NCBI RefSeq assembly: GCF_009931435.1
Contig: NZ_CP043414.1
Strand: one strand, 5' to 3'
DNA length: 64,000 nt
From: Escherichia coli
GTDB lineage: Bacteria > Pseudomonadota > Gammaproteobacteria > Enterobacterales > Enterobacteriaceae
In this document: positions 9,374 through 30,824 of the stretch, piece by piece
Position numbering within the stretch: position 1 is the stretch's first letter
How the letters are laid out: every line of letters begins with the position of its first letter
Translations under genes and position numbers: made by a program
The notes under the pieces: generated by a model
Databases searched by the model: none
Told to the model about the DNA's origin: nothing
What the model saw: only the letters and a program-made list of their open reading frames with translations

Positions 9374-9487
9374 GGGTGGGGGCCCTGCCAGCTACATCCC
9401 GGCACACACGTCATCTGCCTTGGCTGCTTCCTTCCGGACCTGACCTGGTAAACAGAGTAGCGTTGCGGGAGAACCAACAGAGCCCCC
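9374..9487 (-). ncRNA. ffs: 4.5S RNA (signal recognition particle RNA), 114 nt
   Basis: Minus strand reads GGGGGCTCTGTTGGTTCTCCCGCAACGCTACTCTGTTTACCAGGTCAGGTCCGGAAGGAAGCAGCCAAGGCAGATGACGTGTGTGCCGGGATGTAGCTGGCAGGGCCCCCACCC, the recalled E. coli 4.5S RNA sequence; expected between ybaA and atl. Confidence 0.92.
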
Positions 9488-22066: not shown

Positions 22067-24032
<1,966 letters not shown>

Positions 24033-24223
24033 GGTGTAACAACACTCCGCTGTAGATGACTGTGTACCTCACGCAACGTATCGATGCGCGCAAAGGCCTA
24101 TTGTGACAAGAAACGGGGGCAATTGTCAGCCCACAAGACGCAGAAAGTCACCGAATACAAATAAAAAAGGCACATCAGTAGATGCGCCCTTGAACTTCGT
24201 CACACCCCCACTGGGGACAACGC

Positions 24224-24496
24224 TTAGTTTACCGCGTCTTTCAGTGCTTTACCTGCACGGAAGCTCGGTACTTTAGCGGCAGCGATGGTGATCTCTTTAC
24301 CGGTCTGCGGGTTGCGGCCAGTACGGGCAGCACGCTCTTTAACGGCAAAAGTACCAAAACCTACCAGTGCTACATCATCCCCTTCTTTCAGAGATTCAGT
24401 TACGGAAGCAATAATAGCATCTAACGCACGGCCAGCCGCAGCTTTAGAGATATCAGCCCCTGCAGCAATCTTGTCGATCAATTGAGATTTATTCAC
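24224..24496 (-). CDS. hupB: DNA-binding protein HU-beta (90 aa)
   Basis: [93 protein letters not shown]. Confidence 0.97.
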
Positions 24497-24635
24497 TCTT
24501 CTCTTCCTCTTTATAATTTATATCGCACTTGAATCCTTCAAGGTACGAACGCGCAGCAGTTATATCAGGCCAGCCATCCCCTTACAACACCCCTTAATAA
24601 GGGCAAGCCCAATCCGCCATCTAACTTAGCGAGAC

Positions 24636-24680
24636 AAAAAAAGGCTGGCAAGTCCGAATTAGCCTGCCAGCCCTGTTTTT
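24636..24680 (-). terminator. Rho-independent terminator after lon (bidirectional hairpin)
   Basis: aaaaaaa-ggctggca-(14 nt)-tgccagcc-ctgttttt directly downstream of the lon stop. Confidence 0.7.
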
Positions 24681-24704
24681 ATTAGTGCATTTTGCGCGAG
24701 GTCA

Positions 24705-27059
24705 CTATTTTGCAGTCACAACCTGCATGCCAGACGGTTCATTTTGCAGCGCCAGAGTCAGAACTTCCTCAATGCGTTTCACAGGATGAATGTCCAGATC
24801 AGCAATTACGTTGTCAGGAATCTCTTCCAGATCGCGTTTATTTTCGAACGGAATTAACACTGTTTTAATCCCGCCGCGATGCGCTGCCAGTAGTTTTTCT
24901 TTCAAACCACCGATCGGCAGTACCTGACCACGCAGAGTGATCTCACCGGTCATTGCCACATCGGCACGAACCGGGTTACCGGTCAGGCAAGAAACCAGCG
25001 CGGTGCACATAGCAATACCGGCACTCGGACCATCTTTTGGCGTCGCACCTTCAGGTACGTGGACGTGGATGTCGCGTTTTTCGTAAAAATCAGGGTTGAT
25101 CCCCAGTTTTTCCGCACGCGCACGAACCACCGTTAACGCCGCCTGAATGGACTCCTGCATCACTTCGCCGAGCGAACCGGTATAGGTCAGTTTGCCTTTA
25201 CCCGGAACGCACGCGGTTTCAATGGTAAGTAAGTCACCGCCCACTTCCGTCCACGCCAGACCGGTTACCTGACCGACACGGTTTTCGTTATCCGCGCGTC
25301 CATAGTCGAAACGCTGAACACCGAGGTAGTCATGCAGGTTATCGCCGTTAATTTCGATATGTTTTAATGACTTATCGAGCAGTAACTGCTTAACCGCTTT
25401 GCGGCACAGTTTGGAGATTTCACGTTCCAGACCACGTACGCCCGCCTCACGGGTGTAGTAACGAATAATGCCGATAATGGCGCTATCGTCGACGGTCAGC
25501 TCACCTTTTTTCAGTGCATTACGTTCAATCTGCTTTGGCAGCAGGTGACGTTTGGCGATGTTCAGTTTTTCATCTTCGGTATAACCGGAGAGGCGAATCA
25601 CTTCCATACGGTCCAGCAGTGGTGCCGGAATGTTCATGGAGTTTGACGTCGCGACAAACATCACGTCGCTGAGATCGTAATCCACTTCCAGGTAGTGGTC
25701 GCTGAACGCTACGTTCTGCTCTGGATCCAGCACTTCAAGCAGTGCGGAAGCCGGATCGCCACGCATGTCAGAAGACATTTTGTCGATCTCATCGAGCAGG
25801 AACAGCGGGTTTTTCACGCCCACTTTCGCCATTTTCTGGATCAGTTTACCCGGCATAGAACCGATGTAAGTACGGCGGTGACCACGGATTTCCGCTTCGT
25901 CACGCACGCCGCCCAGCGCCATACGAACATATTTACGTCCGGTAGCTTTGGCGATGGACTGACCAAGAGAAGTTTTACCTACCCCCGGCGGCCCAACCAG
26001 GCAGAGGATCGGCCCCTTGATTTTGTTGACACGGCTTTGAACCGCAAGATACTCAAGGATACGATCTTTAACGCGCTCCAGACCATAATGGTCGGTATCA
26101 AGGATTTCTTGCGCCTGACGCAGGTCTTTTTTGACCTTGCTACGCGCATTCCACGGCACCTGCACCATCCAGTCGATATAACCACGCACCACGGTCGCTT
26201 CTGCCGACATCGGAGACATCATTTTCAGCTTCTGCAACTCTGCTTCCGCTTTCTCTTTTGCCTCTTTCGGCATTTTCGCCGCGTCGATTTTGCGCTTCAG
26301 GGCTTCGTTTTCGTCCGGTGCATCGTCCATTTCGCCGAGTTCTTTCTGAATAGCTTTCATTTGCTCGTTCAGATAGTACTCACGCTGGGATTTTTCCATC
26401 TGCTTTTTAACGCGGTTGCGAATGCGTTTCTCAACCTGCAGCAGATCGATTTCCGATTCCATCATCGCCATCAGATATTCCAGACGTTCGTTGACGTCGG
26501 ACATCTCCAGAACAGACTGTTTGTCAGCGAGTTTCAGCGGCATATGCGCAGCAATGGTATCCGCCAGACGCGCCGGATCGTCGATGCTGTTCAGCGACGT
26601 CAGCACTTCTGGTGGGATTTTTTTGTTCAGCTTGATATAACCTTCAAACTGGCTGATTGCGGTGCGCACCAGCACTTCCTGTTCCCGCTCATCAATGGTC
26701 GGCGACTCCAGATACTCCGCCTTCGCAGAAAAGTGTTCGCCATTGTCAGAGAGCGCAGAAATACGCGCGCGCTGTAACCCCTCGACCAGCACTTTGACGG
26801 TGCCGTCAGGCAGTTTCAGCATCTGCAATATAGAGGCCACGGTCCCGACGGTGAAAAGATCGTTTACACCCGGCTCATCCGTTGAAGCTTCTTTCTGCGC
26901 GACCAGCATAATTTTTTTATCATGGTCCATCGCCGCTTCCAGACAACGGATAGATTTTTCCCGCCCGACAAATAAGGGGATGACCATGTGCGGATAAACC
27001 ACCACATCGCGCAGCGGCAATACGGGGATTTCAATGCGTTCAGAACGCTCAGGATTCAT
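24705..27059 (-). CDS. lon: ATP-dependent Lon protease (784 aa)
   Basis: ORF 24705..27104 trimmed to ATG at 27059 ([44 protein letters not shown]...); Walker [10 protein letters not shown]. Confidence 0.97.
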
Positions 27060-27142
27060 AGAGCTCTCTCTTAGTTTAATTTCCGCCAGGTAATCAGATG
27101 ACACGACTGTGCTTCACGCCATCTATTAACATGTACGTCAGT

Positions 27143-27170
27143 ATATGGGGATGTTTCCCCCACATTCAAC
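27143..27170 (-). promoter_or_regulatory. sigma32 heat-shock promoter of lon
   Basis: Minus strand reads TTGAAT-gtgggggaaacat-CCCCATAT, matching the sigma32 -35/-10 consensus (cTTGAAa / CCCCATnT), about 85 nt upstream of the lon ATG. Confidence 0.7.
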
Positions 27171-27189
27171 GCCGAGAATAGAGGAAAAA

Positions 27190-27222
27190 TTAAAGGGGAG
27201 ATAAAATCCCCCCTTTTTGGTT
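27190..27222 (-). terminator. Rho-independent terminator after clpX
   Basis: Minus strand gggggga-ttttatc-tcccc followed by tttaattttt, just downstream of the clpX stop. Confidence 0.6.
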
Positions 27223-27246
27223 AACTAATTGTGTGGAAATGGTTAA

Positions 27247-28521
27247 TTATTCACCAGATGCCTGCTGAGCTTCCGGCTTGCCATAAATCAGCAACGGTTT
27301 GCTTTGGCCATCAATTACCGACTCGTCGATAACCACTTTTTCGACATCTTCCATGGACGGCAGATCATACATGGTATCGAGCAGTGCGGCTTCTACGATG
27401 GAACGCAGGCCACGGGCACCGGTTTTACGCGCCATCGCTTTCTTAGCGATAGCATCCAGCGCCTCGTCACGGAATTCCAGATCCACGCCTTCCAGATTAA
27501 ACAGCGCCTGATACTGCTTGGTCAGGGCGTTTTTCGGCTCTTTGAGGATCTGAATCAGAGCTTCTTCGCTCAGTTCATTCAACGTTGCGACAACCGGCAG
27601 ACGACCAATGAACTCAGGGATCAGACCAAACTTGATCAGATCTTCCGGTTCAACCTGCGCCAGCAGCTCGCCTTCACTTGCTTTGTCAGATTTCGCTTTT
27701 ACCGTCGCGCCAAAACCAATGCCGGAGCCTGTTTCTACACGATGGGAAATCACTTTATCCAGACCGGCAAACGCACCGCCACAGATAAACAGGATCTTAG
27801 AGGTATCAACCTGCAAGAATTCCTGCTGCGGATGTTTACGCCCACCTTGCGGTGGAACAGCAGCTACCGTACCTTCGATCAGTTTCAACAGTGCCTGCTG
27901 TACGCCTTCACCGGAAACGTCTCGGGTAATGGACGGGTTGTCTGACTTACGAGAAATCTTGTCGATTTCATCGATGTAGACAATCCCGCGCTGCGCTTTC
28001 TGTACGTCGTAATCGCACTTTTGCAACAGCTTCTGAATGATGTTTTCAACGTCTTCGCCCACATAACCGGCTTCGGTCAGCGTGGTTGCATCGGCCATGG
28101 TGAACGGGACGTCCAGCAGGCGCGCCAGCGTTTCGGCCAGCAGCGTTTTACCGGAACCGGTCGGACCGATCAGCAGAATGTTACTTTTGCCCAACTCGAC
28201 ACCATTGCTGGTATCGCCGTTGCGCAGACGTTTGTAGTGGTTGTATACCGCGACCGCCAGCACTTTTTTCGCCTGTTCCTGACCGATAACGTAATCGTCC
28301 AGGTGGTTGCGAATTTCATGCGGCGTCGGTAGCGCACTGCGTTCACGATGCGGTGCAACTTCTTTAATCTCTTCGCGAATGATGTCGTTACATAAATCAA
28401 CACATTCGTCGCAGATATACACGGATGGACCGGCAATCAGCTTGCGCACTTCATGCTGGCTTTTGCCGCAAAAAGAGCAATACAGCAATTTGCCTGAGCC
28501 ATCTTTGCGTTTATCTGTCAT
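27247..28521 (-). CDS. clpX: ATP-dependent Clp protease ATP-binding subunit ClpX (424 aa)
   Basis: [51 protein letters not shown] (zinc-binding domain) plus Walker A GPTGSGKT. Confidence 0.98.
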
Positions 28522-28647
28522 GGGTCAAAACCTCTTCTTTGTTCTTTGTGCCGCACACGACGACGCAAATGCCATTCTCAGGCGCAAGCCGCTTTATAGC
28601 GTTGTGCCGCCCTGGATAAGTATAGCGGCACAGTTGCGCCTCTGGCA

Positions 28648-29271
28648 TCAATTACGATGGGTCAGAATCGAATCGACCAGACCGTATTCCACCGCTTCAG
28701 GGGCGGAAAGGAAGCGATCGCGTTCGGTGTCACGTTCAATCTGTTCTAATGATTGACCCGTATGAAGCGCCATAAGTTCATTCATACGCCCTTTAACTTT
28801 CAGAATTTCACGGGCATGAATTTCGATATCGGTCGCCTGGCCCTGGTAGCCGCCCAACGGCTGGTGAATCATCACGCGCGAATTCGGCAGGCAGAAACGT
28901 TTACCTTTTGCCCCGGCGGTCAGCAAGAAAGCGCCCATCGAGGCCGCCTGGCCCATGCAGATGGTGCTGACATCAGGCTTGATAAACTGCATGGTGTCAT
29001 AGATAGACATCCCGGCAGTGATCACCCCGCCTGGGGAGTTAATGTACAGATAGATATCTTTTTCTGGGTTTTCTGCTTCCAGGAACAGCATCTGCGCCAC
29101 AATCAGGTTAGCCATGTGGTCTTCAACCTGGCCAGTCAGAAAAATGACGCGTTCCTTAAGTAGACGAGAATAGATATCAAAAGAGCGCTCACCACGTGAG
29201 GTCTGTTCAATGACCATCGGCACCAGCGCCATATGGGGTGCAAAGTTATCTCGTTCGCCGCTGTATGACAT
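28648..29271 (-). CDS. clpP: ATP-dependent Clp protease proteolytic subunit ClpP (207 aa)
   Basis: [50 protein letters not shown]... Confidence 0.98.
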
Positions 29272-29451
29272 TTCCGTCTCCTGGATAAAATTGAAAAAAC
29301 CTGCTGTACCGATTGTAACCTTATGGACGGATTATCAGCTAGTCCCTGTGTTATGGGTACGGCATCACCATATTTCAAGCATAACAATCTTTTGTTGTTA
29401 CGCTAACACCGAAAGAGGCTTTTCGCACGGTTCCATGCAAAATTCATGACA

Positions 29452-29488
29452 AAAAAAAGCCCACCACCTGGCGGTGACGGGCCTTTGT
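29452..29488 (-). terminator. Probable terminator after tig
   Basis: GC-rich imperfect hairpin (gcccaccacctggcggtgacgggc) followed by a T-run on the minus strand (aaaaaaaa on plus). Confidence 0.45.
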
Positions 29489-29516
29489 GCGAATTTAGCG
29501 CGTTATGCTGCGTAAA

Positions 29517-30824
<1,308 letters not shown>

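Follow-up and report, generated by a model that had tools for sequence, protein, structure and literature searches.

The sigma-32 heat-shock promoter of lon in a 64-kb stretch of the Escherichia coli chromosome and its likely basal use by sigma-70

For lon, the gene of protease La, Gayda et al. (J Bacteriol, 1985) and Chin et al. (J Biol Chem, 1988) reportedly determined the promoter sequence and compared it to heat-shock promoters. The promoter is also said, after saiSree et al. (2001), to contain a hot spot for IS186 that is the basis of the lon deficiency of E. coli B. Another work (PMC3045373) described how IS186 inserted spontaneously and repeatedly into one and the same site of the lon promoter, in one orientation or the other, and a study on Dickeya that summarises older literature (citing Goff 1984) states that lon of E. 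coli is sigma-32 dependent and rises with heat. The consensus of sigma-32 promoters is quoted in the literature as TNtCNCcCTTGAA and CCCCATtTa, the second part also as CCCCATWT. The reference sigma-32 promoter, for which the structure of the open complex is available, is dnaK P1, with the sequence CCCCCTTGAAGACGTGGTTTACGACCCCATTTAGTAG and with CTTGAA at -35 to -30.

We analysed a 64-kb stretch of E. coli DNA (hereafter, the window), in which a canonical sigma-32 promoter of lon had been predicted on the minus strand. Read directly, the minus strand from 27170 to 27143 is GTTGAATGTGGGGGAAACATCCCCATAT, that is G-TTGAAT-13 nt-CCCCATAT, in the context ...TATTCTCGGC GTTGAATGTG GGGGAAACAT CCCCATATAC TGACGTACAT G... 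The coordinates (27143-27170) and the description as a sigma-32-like TTGAAT-13 nt-CCCCATAT given in the original prediction are therefore exact, and its distance of about 85 nt to the lon ATG was measured by us as 84 nt, from the 3′ end of the -10 element to the A of the start codon (27059). The parts of the promoter are the following:

27164 to 27169, minus strand: -35 element TTGAAT, by direct reading (sigma-32 core TTGAA at 27165-27169)
27151 to 27163, minus strand: spacer GTGGGGGAAACAT of 13 nt, by direct reading
27143 to 27150, minus strand: -10 element CCCCATAT (sigma-32 consensus CCCCATWT)
27140 to 27151, minus strand: conserved block TCCCCATATAcT, extending the -10 element (about 2 bits per column)
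27140 to 27145, minus strand: sigma-70-type -10 hexamer TATACT, overlapping the -10 element, 18 nt downstream of TTGAAT
27147 to 27161, minus strand: IS186 target GGGGGAAACATCCCC, GGGGG-AAACAT-CCCC, formed by part of the spacer and the CCCC of the -10 element

Compared with the consensus, the -10 element at 27150-27143 matches CCCCATWT in 8 of 8 positions, and GTTGAA at 27170-27165 matches CTTGAA in 5 of 6, the first base being G and not C. The distance between TTGAA and CCCCAT is 14 nt, as in dnaK P1 (CTTGAA-N13-CCCCATTTA), with which lon shares both the TTGAA-N14-CCCCAT spacing and the C-rich extended -10 element. The lon promoter differs from dnaK P1 in the G before TTGAA, in having CCCCATATA where dnaK P1 has CCCCATTTA, and in a better sigma-70-type hexamer (TATACT). 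The word canonical is slightly generous, since G precedes TTGAA in the -35 element where the consensus (CTTGAA) has C.

The genes on the minus strand from 22161 to 30815 are tig, clpP, clpX, lon, hupB and ppiD, in the same order as in E. coli K-12; their names were derived from the sizes of the open reading frames and from the RefSeq annotation of the matching region. Between 27232 and 26800 the window does not differ from the K-12 chromosome at any base (100% identity), and the 7 SNPs that separate it from K-12 are all in the 3′ end of clpX or in the first bases past the clpX stop codon, none of them in the promoter. The 651 bases around the element (26800-27450) are 98.5-99.1% identical to more than 5400 complete E. 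coli genomes; the strain of the window is not K-12, since the best E. coli match over these 651 bases is only 99.1%. Over the 131 bp of the promoter region, 5420 E. coli records reach an identity of 99% or more. With respect to the promoter described for K-12 (the capR/lon heat-shock promoter), that of the window shows no difference at all: the published 51-nt upstream sequences match it exactly and the start codon is as in RefSeq. Elsewhere in the window, a bacterial small SRP RNA (4.5S RNA, ffs; RF00169, 65.8 bits) was found at 9383-9479 on the minus strand, as expected for this chromosomal region.

The published start-site and ChIP data used below were obtained for the identical K-12 sequence and not for the strain of the window. 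K-12 coordinates were converted into those of the window through the lon ATG (458112 corresponds to 27059), which gives the following feature:

A 27134 (K-12 458037) or A 27132 (K-12 458039), minus strand: lon transcription start, from published K-12 mapping

Precisely, Kim et al. 2012 (PMC3415461, supplement) placed the lon start at 458039, with a 5′UTR of 73 nt and the upstream sequence TCTATTCTCGGCGTTGAATGTGGGGGAAACATCCCCATATACTGACGTACA, and Cho et al. 2014 (PMC3923258, Tables S4/S6) placed it at 458037, with 1744 reads, and recorded it in stationary phase, with glutamine and under heat shock. For this same 458037 start the ChIP-chip data of the latter study report binding as 'DH', i.e. sigma-70 and sigma-32, and also 'DH' for binding plus motif. 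A start at the same relative position, behind TTGAATGTGTGGAATACATCCCCATATACT, was mapped for lon of K. pneumoniae (PMC3415461 supplement). Counted from the last T of CCCCATAT, the starts 27134 and 27132 come 9 and 11 nt further downstream, respectively; the geometry at the level of single bases is not settled, because the two published starts are 2 nt apart and their distance to the -10 block exceeds that of dnaK P1 by 1-3 nt. Two minor starts of the lon unit are also listed by Cho et al. 2014 (PMC3923258), at K-12 457701 and 457517 with 166 and 82 reads; they correspond to about 27470 and about 27654 on the minus strand of the window, inside the clpX CDS, where both sigma-32 and sigma-70 bind.

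Conservation was evaluated in one genome per species. The loci were chosen by a degenerate coding pattern for 13 residues of the Lon N-terminus, hence blindly with respect to the promoter, and 117 of them had at least 260 nt of upstream sequence; they span Escherichia, Salmonella, Klebsiella, Yersinia, Serratia, Pantoea, Erwinia, Dickeya, Photorhabdus, Providencia, Edwardsiella and other Enterobacterales. A perfect TTGAA-N14-CCCCAT was found 100-240 nt upstream of the lon ATG in 116 of the 117 loci, and in these 116 the T following TTGAA was invariant as well; the base preceding TTGAA was G in E. coli and A in other genera. The length of the spacer did not vary, and 53 distinct spacer sequences were counted. 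In TTGAATG and TCCCCATATAcT each column held about 2 bits of information, compared with 0.1-0.6 bits for columns of the spacer and the leader. This pattern is the footprint of a promoter, because two invariant blocks stand at a fixed distance on either side of a freely varying spacer. The only exception was the locus of Enterobacter sp. R1(2018), where the similarity ends about 50 nt before the ATG and the sequence further upstream is unrelated; this suggests an insertion or a rearrangement between the promoter and lon. The unrelated stretch, within the 260 nt upstream of that lon, contains GC-rich palindromes.

Could the element be a chance match to a short consensus? With both strands of the 64-kb window counted, there is one exact TTGAA-N14-CCCCAT where 0.03 would be expected (3 of 100 shuffles gave one match), and it remains the sole match when the spacer is loosened to 12-16 nt, against 0.23 expected. 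What speaks for chance is that the relaxed pattern is not enriched, with 2 matches to the core with one mismatch in the window against 0.96 expected, so that only the perfect match is informative. The decisive evidence is of another kind, namely the conservation in 116 of 117 orthologous loci together with the start site and the ChIP signal published for the identical K-12 sequence. These refute a fortuitous match, to which we assign a practically nil probability. A more substantial alternative is an essentially housekeeping promoter read by sigma-70 (TTGAAT, a spacer of 18 nt and TATACT), in which the resemblance to sigma-32 promoters would be secondary. In a consensus scan (TTGACA, 16-18 nt, TATAAT) TTGAAT-18-TATACT has 9 of 12 matches; A2 and T6 of the hexamer are invariant across Enterobacterales; sigma-70 is bound at the lon start site, and the start at 27132 is 7 nt past the hexamer. 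The CCCC run and the T preceding it would, however, be of no use in a sigma-70 promoter with an 18-nt spacer, and both are invariant in 116 loci; moreover, sigma-32 is bound too, the start was recorded under heat shock and lon is stated to be sigma-32 dependent. We thus rejected a pure sigma-70 promoter, given the invariant CCCC run, and consider it very unlikely; use by both sigma-32 and sigma-70 is more likely than use by sigma-70 alone. Likewise the promoter is not exclusively a sigma-32 one, since sigma-70 is also bound and its hexamer, which the original prediction had passed over, overlaps the -10 element. Basal transcription by sigma-70 is likely because of the invariant A2 and T6 of TATACT and of the sigma-70 ChIP call, and most likely it is this hexamer that would supply basal lon expression from the same start region. 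As a weaker second reading, the order-wide invariance of TATAcT beside CCCCAT may mean that an obligatory dual use by sigma-32 and sigma-70 is under selection.

The same DNA has also been described on the opposite strand: searched against Rfam, the whole window yielded a match over the full length of the family sraA, which the original prediction did not include. The features in question are:

27185 to 27216, minus strand: intrinsic terminator of clpX, with an 11-bp hairpin (27216-27192) followed by a T-run (27191-27185)
27131 to 27226, plus strand: sraA of Rfam (RF02029), scoring 106.7 bits where the gathering score is 56 and covering model positions 1-95

Some 15 nt separate the end of the clpX terminator from the lon -35 element downstream of it. 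The terminator hairpin is G/C-ended, and the terminator also scores as one on the plus strand; the G/C runs of the stem and the T-run are conserved across the order. The family RF02029 (SraA / psrA3 / t15) is the same DNA read on the strand opposite to the lon-sense promoter. Its 5′ hairpin is the 28 bp of the lon promoter in antisense: in the model, the complements of CCCCA and ACT are paired to those of the G-run in the spacer and of AAT in TTGAAT. The clpX terminator makes up its 3′ hairpin. One might then suppose that the sequence is conserved primarily as a plus-strand SraA gene (27131-27226), with the 28 bp kept as its 5′ stem-loop. Besides the high score of the full-length match, this is consistent with the literature, in which SraA is listed as a sRNA between clpX and lon with detection by RNA-seq reported, and in which it was scored as a fitness sRNA in a Tn-seq study of Salmonella; in a screen in E. 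coli its overexpression gave no phenotype. Against this supposition, among 77 distinct sequences we found no compensatory change in the 5′ hairpin, no pair having changed on both sides; every pair of this hairpin includes one invariant promoter base, and of the two inner pairs, 17-31 is open in 41 and 18-30 in 35 of the 77 sequences, i.e. in about half of them. Invariant blocks around a free spacer of fixed length are instead the signature of a promoter. Furthermore, the consensus scan found no sigma-70-like site upstream of 27131 on the plus strand, where conservation is low; the table of Cho et al. 2014 (PMC3923258) lists no opposite-strand start from 457701 to 460556; and sraA is not annotated in NC_000913.3 (MG1655 RefSeq). 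Lacking covariation, SraA was rejected as the cause of the conservation, a role that we judge extremely unlikely. In our reading the conservation of the DNA at 27131-27226 belongs to the lon promoter and to the clpX terminator. Going one step further, RF02029 might represent no independently selected sRNA at all, its hairpins would then come from reading the wrong strand of the lon sigma-32 promoter and of the clpX terminator, and the phenotypes ascribed to it would be those of the lon promoter; to this wider reading we give slightly less than an even chance.

As regards the start codon, the promoter had been taken as support for the ATG at 27059 over the start of the longest open reading frame (24705..27104, 799 aa), which begins at an in-frame GTG (27104-27102) 15 codons upstream of that ATG. 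The features concerned are:

24705 to 27059, minus strand: lon CDS of 784 aa, with ATG at 27059-27057 (the RefSeq start is at the equivalent base)
27060 to 27134, minus strand: lon 5′UTR of 73-75 nt, which includes the spurious in-frame GTG at 27104
27057 to 27072, minus strand: ribosome-binding block and start codon AAGAGAGAGCTCTATG, nearly invariant across Enterobacterales

The choice of 27059 is correct and stands on other evidence, while the argument for it fails: the position of the promoter cannot choose between the two codons, because both of them lie downstream of the transcription starts (27134 and 27132) and the element is outside the coding sequence in either case. For the same reason the observation that had been named as contrary to the prediction, i.e. 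the element falling inside the lon CDS, could never occur, as the element is 39 nt outside even a CDS beginning at 27104. The true start of lon is the ATG at 27059, as shown by RefSeq, Shine-Dalgarno pairing, the conserved block, the lack of a conserved extension and the structures of Lon. In fact, the lon start annotated by RefSeq in MG1655 and in a K-12 derivative is the base that corresponds to 27059. The duplex with the anti-Shine-Dalgarno sequence has -5.3 kcal/mol before the ATG at 27059 versus -2.0 kcal/mol before the GTG at 27104, the latter value being no better than that of the median sequence window. No conserved upstream extension of Lon was found, the nearest upstream in-frame stop being 18 to 195 nt away, and 61 of 118 sequences have no in-frame upstream start codon. 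Residue 1 of the Lon chain in 6u5z (784 aa) aligns to the Met of the ATG at 27059, and the 15-residue extension that would begin at the GTG is covered by no solved Lon. The leader around this GTG has about 0.1 bit per column. We also considered a structured regulatory leader and dropped it: the fold of 27134-27040 (-22.3 kcal/mol, z = -0.69) is not unusual. The 16-nt block AAGAGAGAGCTCTATG hardly changes between Escherichia and genera such as Providencia and Edwardsiella, with the rest of the leader varying freely, and its conservation seems above what a weak Shine-Dalgarno sequence needs.

Within the promoter, the original prediction also left out the IS186 target GGGGG-N6-CCCC. It fits what we take to be the definition of an IS186 target site, at least four G, three to seven bases of any kind and at least four C, with documented insertions (saiSree 2001). 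No Enterobacterales locus of the 117 other than those of the window and of E. albertii has a run of at least four G in the spacer, and a full-text literature search for the literal GGGGGAAACATCCCC returned no paper. The promoter was not contiguous in 55 of 5424 complete E. coli genomes. In the one genome inspected, NZ_CP137696, the IS186 end CATAAGCGCTAACTTAAGGG... abuts ...AAACATCCC, so that the end of the IS is inside the CCCC; the junctions read ...ATCCC joined to CATAAGCG, and ...GGGGGAAACATCCC joined to CATAAGCGCTAACTTAAGGG, the latter leading into an IS4-family (IS421/IS186) transposase gene. In this genome a deletion reaching entD follows the IS end. With respect to the IS186 hot spot, the promoter of the window is intact and carries no insertion.

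All considered, the original identification as the sigma-32 heat-shock promoter of lon holds, given the identity to K-12, the mapped start sites, the binding of sigma-32 in vivo and the conservation across the order, and the element is almost certainly the sigma-32 (RpoH) promoter of lon, with a likely basal use by sigma-70. In the working that we propose, region 4 of sigma-32 would read TTGAA(T) at -35 and region 2 would read the C-rich extended -10 element CCCCATAT across the fixed spacer of 13 nt. Transcription would then proceed from A 27134 (or 27132) through a leader of 73-75 nt into lon from the ATG at 27059, and an increase of sigma-32, upon heat or stress by misfolded proteins, would raise lon transcription. 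TATACT, 18 nt from TTGAAT, would provide basal lon expression through sigma-70 from the same start region. The share of transcripts made by each holoenzyme is what we infer here; the sequence, its identity to K-12, the starts, the occupancy and the conservation come from the data presented above or cited.

The lon heat-shock promoter is real, ordinary and long known, and the known picture of lon regulation is unchanged: a heat-shock promoter of its own precedes lon, just past the clpX terminator. The annotation of lon from 27059 (784 aa), and not from the GTG at 27104 of the open reading frame, is confirmed, with the caution that where a promoter lies says nothing about which of two start codons is used if both are downstream of the transcription start. 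In our reading, every insertion in 'sraA' disrupts the lon promoter too; if the wider reading of RF02029 is true, phenotypes of sraA disruption, such as the fitness score in Salmonella Tn-seq, would really be phenotypes of the lon promoter. More generally, features lying opposite a strongly conserved promoter, as sraA does here, can inherit a conservation that is not theirs.
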